Shown here one piece after another: positions 47,234 through 63,939 of a stretch of 64,000 nucleotides of DNA (position 1 is the first letter of the stretch; each line of letters begins with the position of its first letter). Source of the stretch: Candidatus Marinacidobacterium sp. Lineage in GTDB: Bacteria > Acidobacteriota > Vicinamibacteria > Marinacidobacterales > Marinacidobacteraceae. Position numbers and translations under genes: made by a program. Under the pieces are notes generated by a model, which saw only the letters and a list, made by a program, of their open reading frames with translations, ran no database searches and was not told the DNA's origin. Where the stretch lies: contig OZ242011.1 of the NCBI GenBank assembly GCA_965204755.1, positions 3,264,001 through 3,328,000 of the forward strand. The letters are read 5' to 3'.

Positions 47234-47307
47234 TACGCCTGGCAGGACTCGAACCTGCGACCTACGGATTAGGAATCCGTCGCTCTATCCGCCTGAGCTA
47301 CAGGCGC
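47234..47307 (-). tRNA. tRNA-Arg(CCT)
   Basis: GCGCCTG-TAGCTCAGGCGGATAGAGC-G-ACGGA-TTCCTAA-TCCGT-AGGTC-GCAGG-TTCGAGT-CCTGC-CAGGCGT-A cloverleaf; CCA not encoded. Confidence 0.96.
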
Positions 47308-52468: not shown

Positions 52469-53494
52469 ATGCGCGTTTCCCTCCTGCGTGTTCCCGCCTT
52501 CCCGCTGTTCGGCGTCCTTGTCGGCGTTCTGGTCGGCGCCCTCGCCGTCCTCGCAGCGGCCGCCGCCGCCCCGAGCCAGCCGCCCGCCTCCGCCGCCCCG
52601 CCGCCGCCCGCCGCGGGCGACCTCGAGCAGGAGCAACGGAAGACCACCGTCGGCGACCGGTTCAGTTTCGTGATCCGGGTGCCGAGCGTCACCCTCGATG
52701 TCGTCGTCTCCGACGAGCGCGGCCGGTTCGTGACCGGCCTCGGCCCCGCGGACTTCGTGGTGCTCGAAGACGGCCGACCCCAGGAGATCGAGTTCTTCAC
52801 CGCCGAACTCACCCCCGTGAGCAGCCTGCTGCTGCTCGACACCTCCGCCTCGGTCCGCTCCAGCCTCTCCGCCATCCAGACCGCCGCCTACCTGTTCCTC
52901 CGCACGATGGCCGACCGGGACCGGGCGCGGGTGGCCACCTTCAGCGAAGGCGTCCGCTTCGGCCCGCCCTTCCAGACCCGGATCTGGGACCAGGTGGCGA
53001 TGATCCGCGCCATGCGCCCGTTCGGGAAGACCGCCCTCTACGACGCCATCCTCACCGGCCTGCAGGAACTCTCGATCGTCGAGGAGCGGAAGGCGATGGT
53101 GCTGCTCTCCGACGGCGAGGACTCCGGCCGGGCGGCGAAGGGCAGCGTCAGCACCCGGGAACAGGCGCTCGAAGGCGCGCGCCTCTCCGAGGGCGCCATC
53201 TACACCGTCGGCTACACCGGCTGGAGCCCGGACGGCGGCGGCCGGCTGAACCGGGATTTCCTGGACGCGGTGGCGGAGCAGAGCGGCGGGCGCTCCTTCT
53301 ACCCGGAGGAGGTGGAGGAACTGCCCCGATACTTCCGGGAGATCCAGCACGAACTCCACCGGCAGTACCAAATCGCCTACCTCCCCTCCCGCGACCGCAA
53401 GGAAGGCGGCTGGCGCACCATCGAAGTCCGGGTCCGCGACCGCCCGGAACTCACCGCCCGCACCCGCAAGGGCTACTACGCCGCGCCGGGGTAG
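52469..53494 (+). CDS. VWA-domain protein, acidobacterial type
   Basis: V.LDVVVSD..G.FVTGL...DF.V.EDGRPQ, MIDAS DTSAS, TALYDA, SDGED, QYQIAY, RTRKGYY. Confidence 0.9.
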   Translation: MRVSLLRVPAFPLFGVLVGVLVGALAVLAAAAAAPSQPPASAAPPPPAAGDLEQEQRKTTVGDRFSFVIRVPSVTLDVVVSDERGRFVTGLGPADFVVLEDGRPQEIEFFTAELTPVSSLLLLDTSASVRSSLSAIQTAAYLFLRTMADRDRARVATFSEGVRFGPPFQTRIWDQVAMIRAMRPFGKTALYDAILTGLQELSIVEERKAMVLLSDGEDSGRAAKGSVSTREQALEGARLSEGAIYTVGYTGWSPDGGGRLNRDFLDAVAEQSGGRSFYPEEVEELPRYFREIQHELHRQYQIAYLPSRDRKEGGWRTIEVRVRDRPELTARTRKGYYAAPG

Positions 53495-53559
53495 GGACGC
53501 CCGCGCGGCGCGGCGGATGGATGTCCGCGCCGCCGCCGCGCCCGGTCTCGACCGCCCTC

Positions 53560-53588
53560 TTGCGGCCGGGCGAGGCGCGGGCTAATCT
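53560..53588 (+). promoter_or_regulatory. Sigma70-like promoter of RNA unit A
   Basis: TTGCGG-17 nt-TAATCT, 7 nt before GCACTT. Confidence 0.65.
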
Positions 53589-53595
53589 TCCTACC

Positions 53596-53735
53596 GCACT
53601 TCCCCCCCTCGGGATCGTGTCCGGATCGGCAACCGGTTGCCTTTCTGGATACCCCGGGGGCGATTGCCTTGAGATGGCGGTTGCGCAATGCGGGTTCCGC
53701 GTCATCGGGGGGTGCTTCGCGGTCTCAGCCGGTCG
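53596..53735 (+). ncRNA. Putative structured small RNA, unit A
   Basis: GCACTT leader; stems CCCTCGGG/CCCGGGGG, GTGTCCGGA/TCTGGATAC, GGCAACCGGTTGCC; 67/70 identical to unit D; 3' end uncertain. Confidence 0.65.
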
Positions 53736-53935
53736 AGGTTGAGCCTCGCTTCGGGTTTGGCGGCGGGACGAGGGGTTGCGCGTTCGACCCCGGCTCACCC
53801 CTTCGGGTCGAGCCTCCCAACCCGAGATGGCCGCTGCGGCGGCCGACCGGCCTCCGCCCGGTTCTCCGCGCTGGCCCGGCGGAGCCGCCCGAACACGCGG
53901 TGCGCGCCGGCGGCCGCCGGCGAGCCCCCGCGGGC

Positions 53936-53964
53936 TTGATGTCCGGGGAGGCTCTGGATAGCAT
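53936..53964 (+). promoter_or_regulatory. Sigma70-like promoter of RNA unit B
   Basis: TTGATG-17 nt-TAGCAT, 8 nt before GCACTA. Confidence 0.65.
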
Positions 53965-53972
53965 CCTCGCTC

Positions 53973-54050
53973 GCACTAACCCCCCCGGGGATTTCGTCTT
54001 GGGCGGCATTCGTCGTTCGTGGCGCCCCCGGGGCATTCGCGTTAAACGGG
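53973..54050 (+). ncRNA. Putative structured small RNA, unit B (diverged)
   Basis: GCACTAA leader; CCCCGGGG/CCCCGGGG, CGTC/GGCG, GGGCGGC-ATTC-GTCGTTC; same architecture, different apical sequence. Confidence 0.55.
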
Positions 54051-54096
54051 GCGCCTGCGCGTCCCGCTTCCCTGAACCCCCGCTAGTATTCCGACC

Positions 54097-54182
54097 GCAC
54101 TTAAGCCTCCCGGGATCGTGTCCAGATCCGGCAACCGGTGGCCGCTCCGGGCGCCCCGGGAGTGATCCTTCTCGTCGGGAGG
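54097..54182 (+). ncRNA. Putative structured small RNA, unit C
   Basis: TAGTAT -10 at 54084-54089; GCACTTAAG leader; compensatory stem CTCCCGGG/CCCGGGAG, GTGTCC/GGGCGC, GGCAACCGGTGGCC; second hairpin CCTTCTC-GTC-GGGAGG. Confidence 0.62.
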
Positions 54183-54385
54183 TGGCCGCCGAGCGATGAG
54201 GCTCGGCGAGTCGAGCGGGTTCTGAGCGGAGTCAGGCGTTCCGGCGTTCGGCGTCGCCTCGCTCCGGCCGTCTCCGACCGTCGCTGCTCCGAGCGGTCGT
54301 ACCGGTGCCCCCGCCTGCGGGGCGCGTCCGGCCCTCGGGTTCTTCCCGGTGTCGGGGCGCCAACTGGACTGGGCCCACCACCGTC

Positions 54386-54414
54386 TTGACATCGCGGAGG
54401 GTGCCGTCTACTAT
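54386..54414 (+). promoter_or_regulatory. Near-consensus sigma70 promoter of RNA unit D (possibly also the NYN gene)
   Basis: TTGACA-17 nt-TACTAT, 7 nt before GCACTT. Confidence 0.8.
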
Positions 54415-54421
54415 TCCGGTT

Positions 54422-54570
54422 GCACTTACCCCCCCCGGGATCGTGTCCTGATCGGCAACCGGTTGCCTTTCTGGATACCCCGGGGGCGATTCTCTTAACG
54501 GGGAGAGGGCGGCTGTCGGGCAAGCGGGTTCGGCGTCGTCGGGGGTGTTCTGAGCAGGCTCAGCCGGTCG
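54422..54570 (+). ncRNA. Putative structured small RNA, unit D
   Basis: Near-identical core to unit A; second hairpin CTCTT-AACG-GGAGAG; similarity to A continues to CTCAGCCGGTCG. Confidence 0.65.
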
Positions 54571-54833
54571 GCGGCTGGGCGGCGCTGCGGATGTGGCGGT
54601 TGGGCGAGCACTTGCGAGTTCGTCCTTGGCTCGACCGGTCGGCCGGGCCGCGGATGTGACCTCGCGGGCCGCGTCGCGCGTTCGTCTCCTCCGCTGTCTC
54701 TCATCCTGTCGCGGATTCGCGCGGAGGGCTCGTGTACGAGACGGACCGGCATGGGGCGCGAGATGCCGCCCCGGATGACGAAGTGGATGATCGGTCCACT
54801 CGCCGCAACCGGGTCGGCGGTGTCGCCAGCGAA

Positions 54834-55484
54834 GTGTCGAACGCGTCCCTTCCGCCGCTGCCGCTTCAGCGAGCGGCCGTGTTCATCGATGGAAGCAACT
54901 GGTACTACGGACTCAGAGGAATCGGGGTTCGCAGCGGCCATCTCCATTATTCGGAAGTGGCTCGCAAACTCGCCTGCGGCCGGAATGTGTGCGCTGTCCG
55001 ATACTATGTCGGGAAAGTCACTACGCCTATCGCGACGGCCAAGGCGCAAGACGACTTCTTGGCGGCGCTGCGCGAGCAGGGAGTGCGTGTCTCTTTGGGC
55101 CGGATGCAGCGCAATCCCATGAGCCGGCGGGCCGCGGATGACCGGAGTCGGCTGGCTCGCGCCTTCGCGGATCGCGACCATGAGGTTCCGCCCGACCTGA
55201 TGCGAACGATCGACGCGTTCTGTCGCTCGCGGCCGCCCGAATACCGGGAGAAGCAGGTGGATACACGGATCGCGGTGGATCTCGTGGACCTGGCGCACCG
55301 AGACCGGTACGATGTGGCTTATCTACTCTCCGCAGACGCCGACTTCCTTCCGGCAGTCCAGGTAGCGCGTCGTCTCGGTAAGGGAGTGTTCGCTGTCGCT
55401 CCATCCGGAGGGGACGAACTCAAGGAGGCAGCGACCGGTTTCATAAAGGTCTCGGCAGACTGGTTCGAGGGCCTGTACGCCTGA
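54834..55484 (+). CDS. NYN-domain (LabA/DUF88, PIN-fold) ribonuclease
   Basis: VFIDGSN, YYVG, EKQVDTRIAVDL, LLSADADFLPAV, GKGV; acidic catalytic set intact; start GTG 54834 or 54732. Confidence 0.9.
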   Translation: MSNASLPPLPLQRAAVFIDGSNWYYGLRGIGVRSGHLHYSEVARKLACGRNVCAVRYYVGKVTTPIATAKAQDDFLAALREQGVRVSLGRMQRNPMSRRAADDRSRLARAFADRDHEVPPDLMRTIDAFCRSRPPEYREKQVDTRIAVDLVDLAHRDRYDVAYLLSADADFLPAVQVARRLGKGVFAVAPSGGDELKEAATGFIKVSADWFEGLYA

Positions 55485-55736
55485 GTAGATCGCGGTTCTC
55501 GATGACTCATCGAGACGGCGCCGAGGTCGCGGTCGTCGGCAGGCGACGGATCGCAGACATAGGCCCGCGCTTAGCTCCGGGTGGCTCCCGTTCTCGCTGC
55601 GGCCGCGGAGGCGGGTGGATGCGTACGGGTCTCGGTATCGGAGGCGGATGAGCGCGTCCGGGCGGGGTGGTCGGATCTGTAGGCGGCAGGGCATACGATC
55701 TACCGGCGGCGGCGCATGCGGGGGGAGTTCGGGGTG

Positions 55737-56687
55737 ATGGATGCCCGGCGGGTGGTTCGGCGGTTGGTTCTCACCGGGGCGGCCGAGGAGGTCGTGGACC
55801 CGGGAGGCGGGTTCGCGGTGGCGGGGCGGGCCGGGGACACCGAGATCGCGGTGGCCGGGGGGCTGCCGCGGACGGCGGCGGCGCGGGCGCGGGGGCTCCG
55901 GGCCGCGTGGAGGCGGCGGGTGGGGAACACGCCGCGGACGCTCGTCCTGCTCGCGGATGATCTCGGTGGGGCTGCGTCCGTCCCGCGGGTGCTCGTCGCC
56001 GGGCCGGCGGAGGCCGACGCGGGGCCGTACTCGGTTCCGGCGGAAGCGCTGCTCGCCGCGGTGGAGGAGTACGCCGAGCGGCCCGACGGGGTGGGGCGGA
56101 TCCATGCGCTCTCGCGGCAGTTGGAGCGGCTCGCCGGCATCTGCGGCGCGCGGGCGCGGGCGCCCGAATCCGAAGACTCGTTGGAGCGGCTGCGCGGGAC
56201 GGAGTGGTGGGAGGGCGCGAGGGAGCGGACGGCCGCGATCCGGCCGGGCGACGGCTGGCGGGAGATCCTCGGCGCGCTCGGTTACCGGATCGAGCGGCGT
56301 CCGGTCGGGTACGCGCTGCGGAGCGGCGGCGGCGCGGTGGCCGCGGTCGTGATTCCCCGCCGCGACTCGGCCGAGTTCGACGCTTGGGACGACGGCCGTC
56401 CTCCCGAAGCGCGGCTCGCGGAACTGGCTCGCGCCGAGGGGGCGGGTCGCGGGATGTTCGCCGCCGACGACCGGCTGCGCCGGTTCCGGTTCGACGCGCC
56501 GGGCAGCGACGGCGATTGCGGGTGGATCGAACTCGACGCGACCGCGCTCGGCGAGGAGAATCGACCGTTCCTCGCCCTGCTCGCCGCGGACCCGCTCGAG
56601 GTCGCGACCGCTGACGGGCGTTCGGTCGAGCCCGGCGCGCTCGGCCTCGCGACGCGGGAAGTCGCGGCGTCGCCGGTTTCGGCGTGA
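55737..56687 (+). CDS. Stand-alone paralog of the N-terminal ~280 aa of the downstream RM enzyme
   Basis: Colinear similarity: MDARRVV/MDAERVV, AWRRRVGN/RWKQRVGN, GPYSVPA in both, WWEGA, RPPEARL/RPPEGRL, WIELDA..L.EE.RPFLAL. Confidence 0.75.
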   Translation: MDARRVVRRLVLTGAAEEVVDPGGGFAVAGRAGDTEIAVAGGLPRTAAARARGLRAAWRRRVGNTPRTLVLLADDLGGAASVPRVLVAGPAEADAGPYSVPAEALLAAVEEYAERPDGVGRIHALSRQLERLAGICGARARAPESEDSLERLRGTEWWEGARERTAAIRPGDGWREILGALGYRIERRPVGYALRSGGGAVAAVVIPRRDSAEFDAWDDGRPPEARLAELARAEGAGRGMFAADDRLRRFRFDAPGSDGDCGWIELDATALGEENRPFLALLAADPLEVATADGRSVEPGALGLATREVAASPVSA

Positions 56688-56720: not shown

Positions 56721-59700
56721 ATGGATGCTGAGCGGGTCGTCAGTACGCTGATCGGGGACGGGATCGCCGAGGAGGCGAAGCCGCAGGGGGAGTTCGTGCT
56801 GTCCGCGCGGATCGGCCGGACGGAGGTCAGCGTTGCCGGATCGCTCTCCGCGGCGTCGGCGGGCGCGAAGTTGCGGAGCCGGTGGAAGCAGCGGGTCGGG
56901 AACAGGCCGCTGAAACTGCTCCTGCTCGCGGATGTGTCGGGCGGCGACGACCGCGTCGTGGTCGTCGGCCCGTCGAAGGCCGACCAGGGGCCGTATTCCG
57001 TCCCGGCCACGGGGCTCTTGGAGAAACTCCGGGCGTTCGCCGATCGACCGGACAAGGGGGCGCGGCTGCGCTGGCTCACCCGCGAGTTGCAGCGGCTGGG
57101 TCTTTCCGGCATTCCCGGAGTTCTGGTGCGGGGTCTGCTGACCGAGCACACGCTGGAACGCTGGCGGGAGCGCGACTGGTGGGAGGGCGCGAAGCGGACG
57201 ACCGCCGCCGTCGGGTCGGGAGACACTTGGCGGGACCTCTTCGGCAAACTCGGCTACGAGTTGGAACAACAGCCGGAGGGCTACTTTCTGCGGGCCGGGG
57301 CGGCGCCGGTCGCGGCGGCGATCGCGTTCAGCGAGTCGGACCAGTTCGACCGCTTCGACGAAAACAACCGCCCGCCCGAGGGACGGCTCGCCGACCTGTG
57401 CGCGTCCGCGAACCTGCGCTACGGGATACTCGCGGCCCGCGGGAGGTTGCGCCTCTTCCGGTTCGATGCGCTGGACGGGAGCGGCGCCTCCGACTGGATC
57501 GAACTCGACGCCGCCGAACTCCGGGAAGAGGATCGGCCGTTCCTCGCCCTCTTCGCCTCCGAGTCGCTGGTTCCTGACGGTCGCTTCGATGCGGTGCTGA
57601 GCGACTCGCGCCGATACGGGGTGGAACTCTGGAAGCGGCTGGACAACCGCATCCGGGACCGCGCGCTCCCGGTGCTTGCCGAGGAGATGGAGGTCTGGGC
57701 GAAGGCAACCGGACTCGATCTGTCGGACCCGGCAGTCCGCAAGGACCTGGAACAGGCCTCCCTGACGCTGGCGTTCCGGCTGTTGTTCGTTCTCTACGCC
57801 GAGAGCGCCGGGTATCTGCCGATGAGCAACGCCGAGTACGAGGGTGCCAGTCTCACGAGACTCGTACGGGAAGCGAGGCGGACGAGGGATCGGCTCGACG
57901 ACAAGTCCACGGCGCTGTGGCTCCGGTTCGTGGTGCTGGTGCAGGCCATGCGCGGCGGCAACTCTGCCTGGAAGGTGCCGGCCTACAACGGAGCCCTGTT
58001 CTCCTCGGACGCTTTCCTCGGGGCGGAGACCCTGGAGCGCCTGTCGCTTCGGGATCCCGGGTTCGGCAGCGTCCTGACACTGCTCGGTTGGGACGAGAAG
58101 CACGATTGCGGCGTGGACTACTCCACCATCGAGATCGGCCATTTGGGACACATCTACGAGTCCCTGCTCACTCGGCAACTGACGCTGGCGCAGCGGGACC
58201 TGGTGTACGACGCGAAGAAGGACCGGTACCGCCCGCCGAAATTCAGCGAAGCCAGGGAGCCCGTCGTTTCCGCCGGGTCGCTGCTCTGGCAAACCCATCT
58301 CGGCGGAAGGAAGGCCGGGGGCGTGTACTACACCCCGTCCCCGCTGGTGCGGCACCTCGTTGAGCGGGCGGTCGCGCCGGCGTTCGAGCGGCACCTCGAC
58401 CAAGTGCGGAAGACGGCGGAGACCGACCCGGAGAGCGCCGCCGACCAGTTGCTCGATTTCGCCGTGCTCGACCCGGCGTGCGGGAGCGCCCACTTCCTCG
58501 TGGAAGTCTTGGATCGTCTCGCCGACTTGACGGCTCGCTTCCTCGGAAACCAGCCGCTCCCGGCGATCGCGGCGCGCATGGAGACTCTGCGCGCCGCCGC
58601 CGGAAGCGACAGCGGAATCCGGGACATGACGCTACTGCGCCGTCTTCTGCTGAAGCACTGCATCTACGGCGTGGATGTGAGTCCGATGGGCGTCGAGATC
58701 GCCACCCTGTCGCTTTGGTTGGCCGCGTTCGTGCCCGGTCTCTCGCTGTCCTACCTCGGGCGGAATGTCATTCGCGGAAACTCGCTGCTCGGAGTCGCCG
58801 ATCGGGAAACCGTGGTGAAGCCGCACGCGTTCGAGAGCGATGAACTCCGGGAAAGTCTGAAGAATGCAGCGGAGGCGGCCGCCGAGTTGGCTGACAATCC
58901 GGACCGGACTCCCGAGGAGTATGACCAGAGTTCGGCGGCGGACCATGCCGCCCAAACGTTCGCGGCGGGTGCGAAGCGACTCTTCGATCTGTGGACTGCC
59001 GAGGCGGAGGTTTCGGACTGCCGGAGGTATCTTGGGGGTCGGGGCAAAGCGATTCTCGACGACGATCTCGACGATCGTGGTCGGGAGCTTGTACCAGCGG
59101 CCGCCGACTACGCCCGGCGATGGGATGTCCTTCACTGGCCGGTCGCCTTCCCCCATGTCTTCGCGCGGGAGCGGCCGGGATTCGACGCTGTTGTCGGCAA
59201 TCCTCCGTGGGAAGAGGTCACTGTCGAGGAACTCGACATCTATGTGATGGTGAGTCCCGGACTGAACACGCTTCCGGAGGATCAGCGGCTCCTGGCGGTC
59301 GCCGAACTCGACGAACAGGATCCGGCGCTGCGGTCGCGCGTTCTTCGGGAGAAGGGCCGGGCGAGGACTCAGAGGCGGGGACTCGGTGTCGGAGAATACG
59401 AAGGCTCCCCCGGCGATCCAGACCTCTACAAGTACTTCTGCCAGCGCTACCGGAAACTGCTGCGGGCCGACGGGGCGTTCGGTGTCGTCCTGCCGAGGAC
59501 GGCTTTCAGCGCCAAGGGGTCGGCGAAGTTCCGCGAGTGGCTCTACGGTCAGATCACGGTAGATCGGGTCGATTTCTTGGTGAACACGAAGCAGTGGGCC
59601 TTCGACAGCACGCCGAAGTACACGATCGCCCTGTTGGCGGCACGGAACCGGAGGTCGCCACCGAGTCACCGGGCGGAGTTCGCGGGCACGGCTGATTCGC

Positions 59701-60644
59701 CCGAGGCCTGGAGGAGGCAAGTGTCGCAAGATGGCGTCGGTCTTGCGGCAGGGTGCTTCGGCCCCGAATGGGAGACGCCCCTCGTTCGTTCGCAGGACGA
59801 AGCGGATCTGCTTGAACGAGTTCGTCGCGGTTCGCGATTCCCGCTGGGGTCGGGAAGTCGGTGGTGGTGCTTTCCCGTGGCCGAACTTCATGAAACGAAC
59901 GACAGACCCCTTTGGCTGGCGCAGACCTCCGGTCTTCCGCTCTGGAAGGGTGCGAGTTTCGGACCGTACGAGCCAAGAGGGACGGACGGCCGTCATTTCC
60001 CGCAGGAGGAGGAGTTGCTCCGCCGCAAACTCCACAAGCGCTCGCCGGGCAGCGGCTCACTGCTTGGACGAAAGTCCAAAACAGCACGCCAAGCCGCGGT
60101 GCGGAAGGAGGTGAGACGCGCCCGCGTCGCCTTTCACGATGTAGCCCGTGCGACGGACCCGCGCACCGTAGTCGCCTGCCTGATCCCCCCTACAGTTCTC
60201 CTGACCAACACGGCGCCCTATCTCGCGTTCCTTCACGGTGCGGAGAGGGAGCAGGCAGCCTGCCTGGGTGTCCTGAACAGTCTTCCGTTCGATTGGCAGG
60301 CCCGGCGGTTCGTCGAACTCCATGTGAACTTTTTCATCCTTGAGGGATTGATCGTTCCGGACATGGAGGAGAGCGACTTCGAGGTCGTTGCCGGGGCGTC
60401 GGCGCGGCTTTCCGCCGTGGACGACCGTTTCGCGGACTTTGCGAAGGCTACCGGGGTCAAGTGCGGTCCCGTCGAGGAGGATGAACGGAGCGAATTGCGA
60501 GCGGAGATCGATGCCCGCGTCGCCCGCGCCTGGAAACTCGACGAGAACGACCTCGACCTGATGTTCGCCGATTTCAGCGAGTCGGCGGTGTCGGCGGACT
60601 ACCGGGAAGCCGTGCGAATCCGTCTGCGGGCGTTGAACGCCTGA
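56721..60644 (+). CDS. Type IIG/Eco57I-like large N6-adenine methyltransferase (RM enzyme)
   Basis: FRLLFVLYAES, YNGALF, LGHIYESLL, GGVYYTP, DPACGSAHF, GFDAVVGNPPW, C-terminal TRD-like region LNSLPFDW. Confidence 0.9.
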   Translation: MDAERVVSTLIGDGIAEEAKPQGEFVLSARIGRTEVSVAGSLSAASAGAKLRSRWKQRVGNRPLKLLLLADVSGGDDRVVVVGPSKADQGPYSVPATGLLEKLRAFADRPDKGARLRWLTRELQRLGLSGIPGVLVRGLLTEHTLERWRERDWWEGAKRTTAAVGSGDTWRDLFGKLGYELEQQPEGYFLRAGAAPVAAAIAFSESDQFDRFDENNRPPEGRLADLCASANLRYGILAARGRLRLFRFDALDGSGASDWIELDAAELREEDRPFLALFASESLVPDGRFDAVLSDSRRYGVELWKRLDNRIRDRALPVLAEEMEVWAKATGLDLSDPAVRKDLEQASLTLAFRLLFVLYAESAGYLPMSNAEYEGASLTRLVREARRTRDRLDDKSTALWLRFVVLVQAMRGGNSAWKVPAYNGALFSSDAFLGAETLERLSLRDPGFGSVLTLLGWDEKHDCGVDYSTIEIGHLGHIYESLLTRQLTLAQRDLVYDAKKDRYRPPKFSEAREPVVSAGSLLWQTHLGGRKAGGVYYTPSPLVRHLVERAVAPAFERHLDQVRKTAETDPESAADQLLDFAVLDPACGSAHFLVEVLDRLADLTARFLGNQPLPAIAARMETLRAAAGSDSGIRDMTLLRRLLLKHCIYGVDVSPMGVEIATLSLWLAAFVPGLSLSYLGRNVIRGNSLLGVADRETVVKPHAFESDELRESLKNAAEAAAELADNPDRTPEEYDQSSAADHAAQTFAAGAKRLFDLWTAEAEVSDCRRYLGGRGKAILDDDLDDRGRELVPAAADYARRWDVLHWPVAFPHVFARERPGFDAVVGNPPWEEVTVEELDIYVMVSPGLNTLPEDQRLLAVAELDEQDPALRSRVLREKGRARTQRRGLGVGEYEGSPGDPDLYKYFCQRYRKLLRADGAFGVVLPRTAFSAKGSAKFREWLYGQITVDRVDFLVNTKQWAFDSTPKYTIALLAARNRRSPPSHRAEFAGTADSPEAWRRQVSQDGVGLAAGCFGPEWETPLVRSQDEADLLERVRRGSRFPLGSGSRWWCFPVAELHETNDRPLWLAQTSGLPLWKGASFGPYEPRGTDGRHFPQEEELLRRKLHKRSPGSGSLLGRKSKTARQAAVRKEVRRARVAFHDVARATDPRTVVACLIPPTVLLTNTAPYLAFLHGAEREQAACLGVLNSLPFDWQARRFVELHVNFFILEGLIVPDMEESDFEVVAGASARLSAVDDRFADFAKATGVKCGPVEEDERSELRAEIDARVARAWKLDENDLDLMFADFSESAVSADYREAVRIRLRALNA

Positions 60645-60657
60645 TCGTCGTCGCGCG

Positions 60658-63600
60658 GTGAGTCGGCGTCCGCTTCCGCCGCCCCCCGCGGCCGTGTCGG
60701 TGCGTCCGACCCTGCTCGACAACCTCGAATTCGGGACCCACCGAGTCGGACTCGGCGCTCTCGCCTCCGACGATCCGAAGGACGCTCCGGTGTCCGTCGC
60801 CACCGGGTATGTGAATCTCGGGGGGCTCGCGGCGCTCGCGCAGGTCACGGAGACGCCGGCACGGCCGGTGCGGCTCCTGATCGGGGTCGCGCCTCCGCCC
60901 GGCGGCGGAGGAGCGCGGGCTTTGGTCAGGAAGTTCTTCGACGAGGCGCTTCAGGAGGTCCGCCGCGACCGGAACTTCGGGCGCTTTCCGCCGAGCCGGG
61001 CGAGGAGGAGTATCGGCCCGGTGGCCGAGTGGCTGAAGCGGCCCGAGGTCGAAGTCCGGCGGTACCAGGGAGCGTTCCTCCACGGGAAGGCGTACTTGTT
61101 CGGCGACGCCGGCAACCCGCGGGCGGCGCTCGTGTCCTCGGCGAACCTGACCGCCGCCGGGATGGAGAAGAACCTGGAACTCGGCTTGGTCGAGTACGGC
61201 CCGGACACCGTGGCCAAGGCCATCCGCTGGTTCGACCGCCTGTGGAAGTCCGACCAGGCCCGGGACTTCAAGGAGACGCTGGAGAAGTTGCTGGGCGCGG
61301 ACCCGCTCCTCGACGCGCTGGAAGATCCGCGGGCGATCTACCTCCGGATCCTGCTCGAGTACTTCGGGGACGAGTTGGAGAAGGATCCGCCGCGGCCGCA
61401 GGCGGTCACCCTGGCCGACTTCCAGTGGGACGGGTTCCGGCGGGCGCTCCGGATCCTGGACAAGTGCGGCGGCGTGATCTACGCGGACGGCGTCGGCACC
61501 GGCAAGACGGAGATCGGGCTGGCGCTGCTGGAGCGGTACGCGGTCGGGGAAGGCAAACACGCGCTGGTGGTGGCGCCGGCGCAACTGGTGAAGACCTGGC
61601 AGGACCGGATCGACGAGGGAAACCTGCCGGGCCGGGTCGTTTCCTTCCACCAGTTGGCCGACGACCGGCGACTGAACCCGGAGGGGCGCGGCCGACACCT
61701 CCCCGCCGACAAGGACACCTACCGGCTGATCGTCGTGGACGAAGCGCACGCCTTCCGCAATCCGGACACCGGTTGGCACCGGGCGCTCTCCCGGCTGCTC
61801 GGCGGGAAACCCAAGCACGCGGTCTTCCTCACGGCCACGCCGATCAACAACGGCCTGCCGGACCTCTTCCACCTGGTGATGGCCTTCGCCCGCCACGACG
61901 CGGCGTTCGCCGAGCACGGGATCCGCTCGCTGCGGGCGCTGTTCCGGTCGGCGGGGGCGTTCAGCCGGGACGGGGAGAACCTGGACGCGGACCGCCTGTT
62001 CCCGCTCGCCGACCTGGTGAGCGTCCGGCGCGACCGGGCGTTCATCGAGAAGCACTACCCGGACGCCAAGTTCCCGGACGGGAGGCCGCTGCGCTTCCCG
62101 AAGCCTCGACTCGAGACGGCGCGCTACGCGATAGACGAGGTATGGCCCGGGCTGGTCGCCGAGATCACTGACGCCGTGAACGAACTGACCCTCGCCCGCT
62201 ACCGCCCCGAGCACTACGCGGTCGGTGAGGCGAGGGAAGAGGACCGCAACGATACGGGGATCACCGGCCTGCTGCGCTCGGCGATCCTCAAGCGGTTCGA
62301 GTCCTGCCACGAGTCCTGCCGCCTGACCGTGGAGCGCATGGAGAAGGCGCACGAGGCGTTCCTCGCGGCCTGGGATGCCGGGTTCGTTCCCGGCTCCGAG
62401 GCGCTGCGGGAAATCGTGGAGGCGGACCTCGACGAGACGGCGGCGGCCGCGTGGCTCGGCGACGAGATCGAAGACGGACGGAGCCGACCGGTCGCGGACT
62501 TCGACGCCCTGCTTCGGCAACAGGTGGCGGACGACCTGGAGCGCCTGCGGAGGTTCCACCGGCGCCTGGAAGAGACCCGGCAGGGCGACGATCCGAAACT
62601 CCGGCTGCTGGTCCGGCTGATCGAGGAGTCGCCGTCGGAAAAGGTCGTCGTCTTCTCCGCGTTCGCCGATACGGTGCGCTATCTCGACGAAAAACTCCCG
62701 GAGGTCGTGGACGGACGGCGCCGCGCAGTCGTGATCGGCGAGGAGACCGCGCCCGACGAGCGGATGCGCCGCCTCGAGAGTTTCGCCCCGAAGAGCGTCG
62801 TCGGCGAGGATCACGAACTCCCGGACGAAGTGCAGGAAGTGGATCTCCTGCTCAGCAACGATGTCCTCTCGGAAGGGCAGAACCTGCAGCAGGCGGGAGC
62901 GGTCGTCAGTTACGACTTCCCGTGGAACCCGCAGCGGGTCGTCCAGCGCTACGGGCGGGTCATCCGGCTCAAGAGTCCGCACGACGAGGTGTATCTCACG
63001 ACCATGCTGCCGGCGCCGGGAGACCTCGAACTCCTGCTGAAACTCGAGGCGGCCATCCGGCGCAAACTGACCGCGGCGCGGCTCTACGGCATGGATGTGG
63101 AGGTGGTCGAAGGCGGGGCGCCGGAAGCGGAGTTGATGTCCTTCGCGGAGCGGCTCGCCGCCCACGACCCGACCCTGCTCCGCGAATCCGTCGGATCCGG
63201 CATCGGGGCGGCGTTCAGCGGGGAATCGCTGCGCGCGGACTTCCATCGCGCCCTCATGGAAGGCGAACTGCGGAAACTGCGCAACCTGCCTTGGGGCGTG
63301 GGCGCCGCGTTCCGCCTGCCGGCGCCGGGCCGGTCCGGAGCGGCGACGGCAGCCCCCGGCGAATCGTGGGCCCGGACGCCGGGAGTCTTCTTCGCCTGCC
63401 GGACGAAGCGGGACGACCGCTATTGGCGTTTCGTACCGCTCGAGGGTTCGGGGACCGGGCCGGAACCGGAGGCGCTCCACCTGCGGCGGATCGCGCCGCC
63501 GCGAGGAGTGTCCGGTCTGACCTCCCTGCCGGAGGAGGCGGACCTGGAACGGGCTTGGGAAACCGCCGCGGAGTCCATCGTGAAGGAGCACAACGAACTC

Positions 63601-63939
63601 GCCGAGGCGAGTTTGGAGGAGGCGTCGGTGGGGCCGCGGCAGGCGTGGGCGCTCGGCGTGCTCGACGACCCCGACCACGGCCTCTCCGACGAGGAAGCCG
63701 ACCATGCTTCGGAGGCGCTCCGCGTGGGCCGCAGCCAGTCCATCCGCCGCGAGTTGGGCCGGATCGAGAAGGAACTCGAGGACAAGGCCATCTCCCTCTC
63801 CGAGGCCGCCGGCCGCATCGTGGCCCTCGTGAAGTCGGAGGGCCTCCGCCCGGTGGAGCCCCCCAAACCCCTCGAACCCATCGAAGGCGAACAAGACTTG
63901 GGCGTCGTCTGCTGGATGGCCCTCCTTCCTTCGGCGTAG
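60658..63939 (+). CDS. PLD-nuclease domain fused to SNF2/SF2 helicase
   Basis: VATGY, FLHGKAYLF..SSANLT (PLD-like), ADGVGTGKT, DEAH, TATP, LSEGQNLQ, YDFPWNP..QRYGRV. Confidence 0.9.
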   Translation: MSRRPLPPPPAAVSVRPTLLDNLEFGTHRVGLGALASDDPKDAPVSVATGYVNLGGLAALAQVTETPARPVRLLIGVAPPPGGGGARALVRKFFDEALQEVRRDRNFGRFPPSRARRSIGPVAEWLKRPEVEVRRYQGAFLHGKAYLFGDAGNPRAALVSSANLTAAGMEKNLELGLVEYGPDTVAKAIRWFDRLWKSDQARDFKETLEKLLGADPLLDALEDPRAIYLRILLEYFGDELEKDPPRPQAVTLADFQWDGFRRALRILDKCGGVIYADGVGTGKTEIGLALLERYAVGEGKHALVVAPAQLVKTWQDRIDEGNLPGRVVSFHQLADDRRLNPEGRGRHLPADKDTYRLIVVDEAHAFRNPDTGWHRALSRLLGGKPKHAVFLTATPINNGLPDLFHLVMAFARHDAAFAEHGIRSLRALFRSAGAFSRDGENLDADRLFPLADLVSVRRDRAFIEKHYPDAKFPDGRPLRFPKPRLETARYAIDEVWPGLVAEITDAVNELTLARYRPEHYAVGEAREEDRNDTGITGLLRSAILKRFESCHESCRLTVERMEKAHEAFLAAWDAGFVPGSEALREIVEADLDETAAAAWLGDEIEDGRSRPVADFDALLRQQVADDLERLRRFHRRLEETRQGDDPKLRLLVRLIEESPSEKVVVFSAFADTVRYLDEKLPEVVDGRRRAVVIGEETAPDERMRRLESFAPKSVVGEDHELPDEVQEVDLLLSNDVLSEGQNLQQAGAVVSYDFPWNPQRVVQRYGRVIRLKSPHDEVYLTTMLPAPGDLELLLKLEAAIRRKLTAARLYGMDVEVVEGGAPEAELMSFAERLAAHDPTLLRESVGSGIGAAFSGESLRADFHRALMEGELRKLRNLPWGVGAAFRLPAPGRSGAATAAPGESWARTPGVFFACRTKRDDRYWRFVPLEGSGTGPEPEALHLRRIAPPRGVSGLTSLPEEADLERAWETAAESIVKEHNELAEASLEEASVGPRQAWALGVLDDPDHGLSDEEADHASEALRVGRSQSIRRELGRIEKELEDKAISLSEAAGRIVALVKSEGLRPVEPPKPLEPIEGEQDLGVVCWMALLPSA

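Follow-up and report, generated by a model that had tools for sequence, protein, structure and literature searches.

Type III toxin-antitoxins place an RNA gene directly upstream of the gene of an endoribonuclease, with a terminator-like hairpin between the two; the RNA is repeated and more of it is made than of toxin mRNA. These modules are self-contained and often have mobile or defence genes as neighbours. RNase E and RNase III of E. coli (rne and rnc) provide another precedent, regulating themselves through the leaders of their own mRNAs. Two further arrangements are pertinent: the abiF motif, a conserved structured RNA adjoining a conflict-type gene, and NsiR1, a small RNA that comes in tandem promoter-driven arrays. 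The subject of this report is a set of four related RNA units (A to D) lying ahead of the gene of an NYN-domain ribonuclease (RNase) in Candidatus Marinacidobacterium sp., within a stretch of 64,000 nucleotides (contig OZ242011.1, positions 3,264,001 to 3,328,000) that was analysed computationally and is referred to below as the window.

Each of the four units is a copy of a hitherto undescribed small RNA that stands ahead of genes for this type of NYN ribonuclease in many bacterial and, in diverged form, archaeal genomes. At the level of comparative analysis, its fold, its promoters and its almost exclusive linkage to one NYN subfamily across phyla show it to be a new RNA family. Recognition of the RNA by the protein would best explain such a linkage, and a dedicated pairing of RNA and NYN enzyme is well supported on these grounds. 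A literature search found no description of an NYN-linked RNA (supplementary tables of RNA-motif surveys, which lay outside the scope of the search, might list it). This agrees with the first-pass annotation of the locus, made from the DNA alone, which knew of no characterised family pairing an NYN/LabA RNase with such RNAs.

Linkage of the RNA to NYN genes

Full-length homologues of the NYN protein, with 98-59% identity, are present in metagenome assemblies, and a scan of one genome per GTDB species yielded 80 loci. The closest of these, at 59% identity, comes from a Candidatus Marinacidobacterium metagenome-assembled genome (MAG), and many others are from sponge-symbiont MAGs; a separate scan of metagenome loci gave 41% identity as its closest match. 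A related element lies upstream of nearly every homologue, and it comes in two main variants.

Variant 1, found in the window and 17 loci (mostly sponge-associated Acidobacteriota, Gammaproteobacteria, Nitrospirales and Myxococcota), is built in a fixed order: a sigma-70-type promoter, (C)UAA, a run of 7-21 C residues, GGG, an inner hairpin, CCCC, GGGG(G) and, usually, a U-tract. Variant 2 occupies 38 loci in soil and freshwater Acidobacteriota, Gemmatimonadota, Binatia, Myxococcota and others. Its core is nearly invariant (C-run, GG(G/U)GUCUGG, loop, CCACACGCCGGGG, U-tract) and is accompanied by an extra upstream hairpin, recognised by eye.

More distant homologues (21-32% identity), from the independent set of metagenome loci described below, have leaders of two further types, both also recognised by eye. 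A Peregrinibacteria-type leader, CUAAACCC-ACUGCC...GGCAGU-CUUUU with an inner CGCCGGAAACGG hairpin as in variant 1, precedes the gene in 8/8 loci; an archaeal-type leader, CCCCGGUAUG...AAUGCCGGG followed by a U-rich stretch, does so in 16/17. Both types recur in distant genome loci, with compensatory stems such as CCCCAUUAUGA/AAUAAUGGG (locus L084) and ACAGCC/GGCUGU (L087).

The linkage was measured with a covariance model, R1, run on the window and the 80 loci (672 kb, both strands, expectation value E <= 1). It returned 61 matches, 60 on the strand of the NYN gene and one, partial, on the minus strand. Thirty-three matches with E <= 3.5e-7 comprise the 27 training units and six new copies; one further match lies in L023. 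The 26 weaker matches fall in 25 variant-2 loci and stand just ahead of the gene, the sole exception being an orphan copy (L051:894). A regular expression for variant 2 finds the motif in 38/38 loci, its end lying 15-47 nt ahead of the protein match; over 608 kb, both strands, it gives 42 matches, of which 39 are ahead of NYN, one is the orphan and two are spurious. Thus a same-strand motif lies directly upstream of NYN in all 54 assessable loci (17 of variant 1 and 37 of variant 2), which represent several phyla; assessable loci are the 55 with tblastn E <= 1e-20, less L072, whose upstream DNA is missing.

Two other samples extend the count. In five other genomes (2.0-4.5 Mb) all 19 R1 matches with E <= 0.01 flank the seven full-length NYN genes, and six weaker NYN-like matches in the same genomes have no R1 match; the whole-genome searches scored 150 first-look candidates of each genome. 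Thirty-three metagenome loci, none of them used in defining the motif, form an independent set. Among the eight of these with at least 35% protein identity, R1 matches seven, each just upstream of NYN, and the eighth has the motif by eye; over the entire set a related leader, with compensatory stems, is present in 32/33 loci, 25 of them judged by eye and some of them with forms of candidate-phyla or archaeal type. Viral contigs hold one variant-2 match, with no NYN gene nearby, and no variant-1 match, and plasmids show only two distant NYN matches. The test that the first-pass annotation had proposed, a covariance-model search, speaks for it: nearly all relatives lie directly upstream of NYN genes, and the genomes searched have none at other places.

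Confinement to the locus

The genome that contains the window is a single contig of 3.98 Mb (71.7% G+C), and by BLAST, regular expression and covariance model the motif is confined in it to this one locus. BLAST with unit D as query finds only A, C and D; a regular expression for tail, C-run and GGG finds, in promoter context, only A, B and D; and R1, with 150 first-look candidates scored, finds all four units at E 1.9e-9 to 2.1e-6, its next matches (E 0.25 and 0.45) being partial. A 181-nt DNA query against this genome and 60 relatives yielded nothing beyond the locus itself except two marginal matches of 23-30 nt. The family is thus beyond the reach of BLAST and is detected by the covariance model. 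A dispersed repeat (a repetitive extragenic palindrome or a miniature inverted-repeat transposable element) is rejected: copies exist only at the NYN locus here and only at NYN loci in the five other genomes.

Nor is the RNA a known one in disguise. Rfam 15 at its gathering scores reports only tRNAs in the window and 16 related loci. Permissive scans give E >= 4.1 in the gap that holds the units and at best E 0.061, on L035, with bit scores far under the family thresholds. The two ways in which the first-pass annotation might have been overturned at this point, genome-wide dispersal of the motif and membership of an Rfam family with another role, accordingly do not hold. The regular-expression scan also turned up, at C1:1254051 (minus strand) and C1:2027233 (plus strand) of the same genome, two copies of a conserved element of ~130 nt, GTCCGCGTTCGGTTTCG ... 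CCCCCGGGC ... CGCTGCGCGATTCCCCC, which is unrelated to the NYN motif.

The locus and its four units

The units span positions 53593-54494 on the plus strand, in a gap of 1.2 kb bordered by a VWA gene (52469-53494; NCBIfam acidobact_VWFA) and the NYN gene. All four lie where the first-pass annotation had placed them, and each combines a promoter-like region with a GCACU(U/A) tail, a C-run and a hairpin of 51-56 nt. The features of the locus are as follows (R1 values are E-values).

53560-53588, plus strand: promoter-like site of unit A (TTGCGG, 17-nt spacer, TAATCT), from reading of the sequence; under the threshold of the consensus scan.
53593-53668, plus strand: RNA core of unit A, with GCACUU tail, C-run and hairpin at 53607-53659 (R1 3.5e-7; fold -51.1 kcal/mol).
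53669-53935, plus strand: tail of unit A, non-coding, alignable in part with the tails of C and D (alignment; repeats D5, D7 and D9; no coding periodicity).
53936-53964, plus strand: promoter-like site of unit B (TTGATG, 17-nt spacer, TAGCAT), from reading of the sequence.
53970-54041, plus strand: RNA core of unit B, with GCACUAA tail, C7 and hairpin at 53983-54033 with a differing apical sequence (R1 3.2e-10; fold).
54084-54089, plus strand: -10-like hexamer of unit C (TAGTAT), with no convincing -35, from reading of the sequence.
54094-54170, plus strand: RNA core of unit C, hairpin at 54107-54162 with closing arms CUCCCGGG/CCCGGGAG and a compensatory U-A (R1 1.7e-8; pair 19-72 is U-A).
54386-54414, plus strand: promoter of unit D and the NYN gene (TTGACA, 17-nt spacer, TACTAT; consensus scan 10/12 matches, with 0.0 expected from shuffles).
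54419-54494, plus strand: RNA core of unit D, with GCACUUA tail, C8 and hairpin at 54432-54486; 5' end of the NYN leader (R1 1.7e-9; fold).
54495-54731, plus strand: remainder of the NYN 5' leader, with GGAGGG at 54723-54728 ahead of the GTG start, from reading of the sequence.
54732-55484, plus strand: gene of the NYN (LabA-like, HEC-09-like) ribonuclease, 250 aa (Pfam NYN 1.9e-22; PADLOC HEC-09 4.7e-23; Foldseek 2qip and MARF1 NYN).

Units A and D are 96% identical over 70 nt, bearing out their reported near-identity, and C and D are 78% identical over 87 nt (BLAST); the starts of successive units are 124-377 nt apart. Since A, C and D remain alignable for ~200 nt past the hairpin, the block that was duplicated is the promoter plus leader, more than the hairpin. 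The small open reading frames (ORFs) of the gap were considered as genes and rejected for want of codon periodicity: their GC1/2/3 is flat at ~0.7/0.7/0.7, compared with 0.72/0.50/0.93 in the VWA gene, so that here too the earlier reading of the gap as lacking a credible ORF holds good. Between hairpin D and the GTG start lie ~245 nt, including the GGAGGG ribosome-binding site, which sets the window apart from most relatives; a similarly long spacer separates hairpin and start at the second NYN locus of the sister genome.

Fold and covariation

Units A, B and D fold on the plus strand into the 51-56-nt hairpin, in which the C-run plus GGG forms one outer arm and CCC plus the G-run the other. 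The minimum-energy fold of C deviates; the alignment fits it to the common structure, with U-A replacing C-G, so that the compensatory change earlier reported for this unit is confirmed. B has the same fold with another apical sequence, which is what had been meant by the claim that structure is kept over sequence. The C/G-armed hairpin proposed in the first-pass annotation thus stands, by computation for three units and by alignment for C. A weaker point is that single units fold with modest z-scores (-0.6 to -2.2), and the small second hairpin shows no conservation in relatives. The window units differ from most relatives in their longer apical stem.

The alignment of variant 1 (27 units) gives a structure of 13 base pairs, consisting of an 8-bp outer and a 5-bp inner stem, with 91.5% of positions paired. 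Double-sided changes occur in 9 of the 13 pairs; not one of 500 column shuffles attains these figures, and slid controls are all far lower. Compensatory examples include CCCCCUCCGGG/CCCGGAGGG in L027 as well as window unit C. The terminator hairpin of variant 2 has 10 consensus pairs, three with double changes (RNAalifold). RNAalifold missed the upstream hairpin of this variant, which MAFFT had misaligned; its description is by eye. That hairpin lies ~20-45 nt ahead of the C-run (at L046 3909-3933, for example) and, by eye, has a conserved loop region C(C/U)NA(C/A)GGG(G/A); a pseudoknot or anti-terminator might form between its G-run and the spare 5' Cs of the C-run.

Promoters, terminators and copy number

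Every unit in the window has a -10-like box 8-9 nt ahead of GCACU(U/A). The promoter of D is near-consensus, those of A and B have weaker -35 boxes, and C has the -10 TAGTAT with no good -35: the claim that the units are independently promoted is upheld for A, B and D and is weak for C. TTGAC occurs 39-48 nt ahead of the C-run in 21 of 33 variant-1 units, compared with 3.5% of shuffled windows. (This count replaces a strict promoter expression, which caught 10/33 units because of -10 boxes that end in A or C and 19-nt spacers.) Most relatives have hairpin and U-tract ahead of NYN; the window units retain a T/C-rich remnant in place of a clear U-tract.

The first-pass annotation had taken the array as the defining feature of the system. 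That does not survive comparison: most loci have a single element, whose terminator-like U-tract ends a few bases ahead of the start codon. With the U-tract abutting the start codon in this way, NYN mRNA would arise only by read-through. Several copies, in arrays of 2-5 units, are found in 9 of the 18 variant-1 loci, the window included. L035 has five (at 118-nt spacing), the window four, L029, L024 and L079 three each, and L023, L033, L036 and L037 two each. In L036, L037 and L033 copies also follow the NYN gene, with promoters of their own; none of these copies leads into an NYN gene, the gene that starts ~55 nt further on in L033 being an unrelated one.

Comparison of the locus with DNA contigs of four runs from two studies gives a hint, and only a hint, that related strains may carry fewer units and that array copy number may vary: in three runs of one study short contigs join 53500 to 53972 (across A) and 54045 to 54420 (across C), the sequence between the joints being undefined. 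C-run length varies too. It is 7-8 in the window, 13 and 21 in the sister genome (L023 3191-3203 and 3616-3636) and 11 in L038 (1668-1678), and contigs of other samples have 1-nt deletions in both C-runs of unit B (53980 and 54025). This looks like slippage, which would lengthen the single-stranded 5' tail of the RNA.

The NYN protein and its neighbours

The protein matches Pfam NYN (PF01936) at E 1.9e-22 and 80.8 bits, the gathering cut-off being 24.2, and Pfam finds no other domain. D53, D177, D202 and D204 are invariant across 16 homologues, in keeping with the retention of the NYN acidic residues noted earlier. An AlphaFold model has a mean predicted local distance difference test score of 79, residues 1-37 being predicted to be disordered; its best Foldseek matches are VPA0982 (2qip, E 2.3e-8) and the NYN domain of MARF1 (6fdl/5yaa). 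The HEC-09 profile of PADLOC, which has no curated cut-off, matches the window protein at E 4.7e-23 in two stretches and all 16 aligned homologues (the window protein and 15 others). HEC-09 is described as a candidate defence gene embedded in Hma systems (Payne et al., bioRxiv 10.1101/2024.01.29.577857).

The NYN gene has 64% G+C in a genome of 71.7%. Downstream come a 323-aa gene, a type IIG restriction-modification enzyme and an SNF2/HKD helicase:

56721-60644, plus strand: type IIG restriction enzyme-methyltransferase, DrmMI-like (PADLOC REase_MTase_IIG 1.2e-127; Pfam Eco57I).
60658-63939, plus strand: SNF2 helicase with HKD/PLD nuclease part, DrmD/HmaA-like (PADLOC HKD+Snf2 3.8e-38, HmaA 1.5e-21).

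NYN sits at the edge of what may be an Hma-type system, methylase-nuclease and helicase following it; the PADLOC scan did not identify an Hma ATPase. The 323-aa ORF (55716-56687), between NYN and the type IIG gene, has a GC3 of 0.90 and strong coding periodicity and finds no match in Pfam, NCBIfam or PADLOC; it may belong to the defence system. At a distance of 6 kb upstream of the array there is a tRNA gene (47234-47307, minus strand, 70.4 bits).

Neighbours elsewhere include a tRNA-integrase junction (L036), an SNF2+PLD helicase (L035), an AbiEii-like ATPase (L034), a SocA/Panacea antitoxin domain (L031) and a DNA methylase (L025), and also metabolic and regulatory genes. At L036 (2194-4863), in another Marinacidobacterium MAG, a tRNA gene and a tyrosine integrase are followed by RNA-NYN-RNA as the first cargo of an integrated island. 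Across the loci examined NYN has no recurrent protein neighbour; the RNA is its sole constant partner.

What the RNA may do

The preferred explanation runs as follows. The ancestral layout would have been a promoter, an RNA with a single-stranded (C)U(U/A)A-CCC tail, a C-run/G-run hairpin and a U-tract, with the NYN start following at once. Every transcription event would then yield the RNA, and NYN mRNA would come by read-through only. In the sponge-symbiont acidobacterial lineage the promoter-leader block would have been duplicated, making A, B and C extra RNA genes ahead of D, which leads into NYN. The NYN protein would bind the hairpin RNA, a surplus of which would keep the RNase inactive or occupied, while the hairpin would limit NYN expression in cis; a falling supply of RNA, for example through transcription shut-off during phage infection, would free the RNase. 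Such a mechanism would follow type III toxin-antitoxin logic with unrelated parts. That the RNA is a specific ligand of the RNase, made in excess and restraining it, with a hairpin that limits read-through in the type III manner, strikes us as evenly balanced between right and wrong. RNA binding, inhibition of the RNase, toxicity and any defence role are what we infer here. The broader proposal, that this is an old two-part system of Bacteria and Archaea in which a small 5'-tailed hairpin RNA specifically inhibits a LabA-type NYN ribonuclease and serves as its sensor, and hence a new class of RNA-antitoxin with a PIN-like toxin, is put forward tentatively, as possible.

A number of observations weigh against these proposals. 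The window units lack a clear U-tract, the one terminator-like site comparing with a shuffle expectation of 1.1, and discrete small RNAs are for that reason perhaps not made in the window; unit C has no -35. Within 5 kb of one variant-2 copy (L103 5445-5499, minus strand, on a viral-classed contig of 437 kb) there is no NYN gene, several loci are set among ordinary metabolic genes, and exclusivity within whole genomes is a statement about the 150 candidates scored in each. HEC-09, cloned together with the region of its putative native promoter, did not protect against the phages tested, and the passages of the preprint that deal with it do not mention toxicity (10.1101/2024.01.29.577857). Related leaders occur in small genomes of candidate phyla radiation (CPR)-like and archaeal type, which could point to housekeeping rather than conflict. 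Finally, most lineages have the RNA as one cis leader only, a layout that, judged from its arrangement, fits plain self-regulation as well as it fits an antitoxin.

Self-regulation is indeed the alternative that we take most seriously, though we think it somewhat unlikely: NYN would bind or cut its own mRNA leader, or alter its termination, and so steady its own level, extra units being by-products of duplication or decoys that tune the feedback rather than inhibitors of the enzyme. It accounts readily for the one leader copy that ends 15-47 nt ahead of the protein match in all 38 variant-2 loci and for the single copy in the other 9 of 18 variant-1 loci, for start codons that often come right after the U-tract, leaving no room for a ribosome-binding site, for the retention of this layout in small CPR-like and archaeal-type genomes, and for an array copy number that possibly varies among strains. 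It does not lead one to expect the extra copies in 9/18 variant-1 loci, with their near-consensus promoters and U-tracts, some after the gene, which are surprising for a purely cis element; and its key claim, that NYN binds the RNA, is common to the preferred explanation. Thus promoter-driven and free-standing extra copies, defence and mobile contexts and foreign base composition favour the antitoxin-like reading; self-regulation is favoured by the single-copy leaders of most lineages, by the presence of the element in very small genomes and by the HEC-09 phage test, which was negative. The two are not mutually exclusive.

The remaining alternatives fare less well. NYN might process the RNA into a functional small RNA, or might grip it by the hairpin and let the C-rich 5' tail base-pair with G-rich targets, ribosome-binding sites for example, so that protein and RNA together act on other RNAs. 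The conservation of the single-stranded (C)U(U/A)A-CCC tail across variants speaks for this, as do the multiple promoter-driven copies, which recall multicopy regulatory small RNAs; but the tail, being short and nearly invariant, cannot be a programmable guide, no target was identified, no processing site is visible in the sequence, and we regard the idea as doubtful. It is most improbable that duplicated promoter/terminator hairpins, or a DNA palindrome serving as operator, came to lie beside NYN by chance. At the DNA level the apical GGCAACCGGTTGCC of A and D forms a perfect palindrome, and the modest z-scores might be read in the same sense; the palindrome, however, is absent from B and from the relatives, G-U pairs and the U-tract occur on the plus strand only, 60 of 61 R1 matches share the strand of NYN, and linkage to NYN across phyla with compensatory changes contradicts any chance association.

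Comparison with known systems

LabA-like NYN proteins are among the largest PIN-like groups, and one member of the family, HEC-09, has already been put forward as a candidate for phage defence. A partner RNA that accompanies the NYN gene across phyla supplies a concrete ligand for studies of binding, cleavage and inhibition, and it may bear on tests of NYN proteins in foreign hosts, of which the negative HEC-09 phage screen is an example. HEC-09 and the window protein have in common the NYN, MARF1-like fold, the conserved aspartates and the adjoining helicase and methylase of a defence system. They differ at the N-terminus, for which a helix-turn-helix-like similarity is reported in HEC-09 and disorder is predicted in the window protein. 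HEC-09 was treated as a single protein gene, and the terms 'non-coding' and 'ncRNA' do not occur in the main text of the preprint (10.1101/2024.01.29.577857).

The fold and the Pfam NYN match are likewise shared with the LabA-like NYN.COG1432 group (VPA0982, 2qip; the NYN domain of MARF1). That group, of ~8,750 sequences, is listed as 'function unknown', in an entry that mentions no RNA partner (PMC5499597). Were the RNA an inhibitor and sensor of the enzyme, this large group would gain its first biochemical function, and the multicopy arrays of sponge symbionts would represent amplification of antitoxin dosage.

With the rne and rnc leaders the NYN leader shares its position as a structured 5' leader ahead of a ribonuclease gene, recognisable by the gene's own product; it differs in its terminator-like U-tract and in the extra free-standing, promoter-driven copies of several lineages. 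The NYN units resemble the abiF motif in being structured RNAs beside a conflict-type gene and the NsiR1 arrays in having a promoter and terminator for each unit. They are unlike the Rfam families, matches of NsiR1 and Hrs1 on L035 lying far under threshold, and, whatever the mechanism, the motif is a candidate for a new Rfam family.

The comparison with ToxIN, CptIN and TenpIN is the most instructive. Common to them and the NYN module are an RNA gene upstream of the RNase gene, the repetition of the RNA, the self-contained character of the whole and its frequent setting beside mobile or defence genes. A terminator-like hairpin between RNA and enzyme gene is seen in relatives, where the window units keep a T/C-rich remnant of the U-tract. 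The enzyme, in contrast, has an NYN/PIN-like fold and not that of ToxN (Pfam, Foldseek). ToxIN-type antitoxins are contiguous repeats of 34-36 nt cut from one precursor, which is not the layout of the NYN-linked RNAs: these are separate units, most with a promoter of their own, 118-500 nt apart, and mostly present as one copy per lineage. Toxin fold and repeat architecture therefore rule out membership of the ToxIN family, and the likeness would be one of working only. If the RNA does neutralise the enzyme, RNA-antitoxin systems would reach beyond the ToxN fold.

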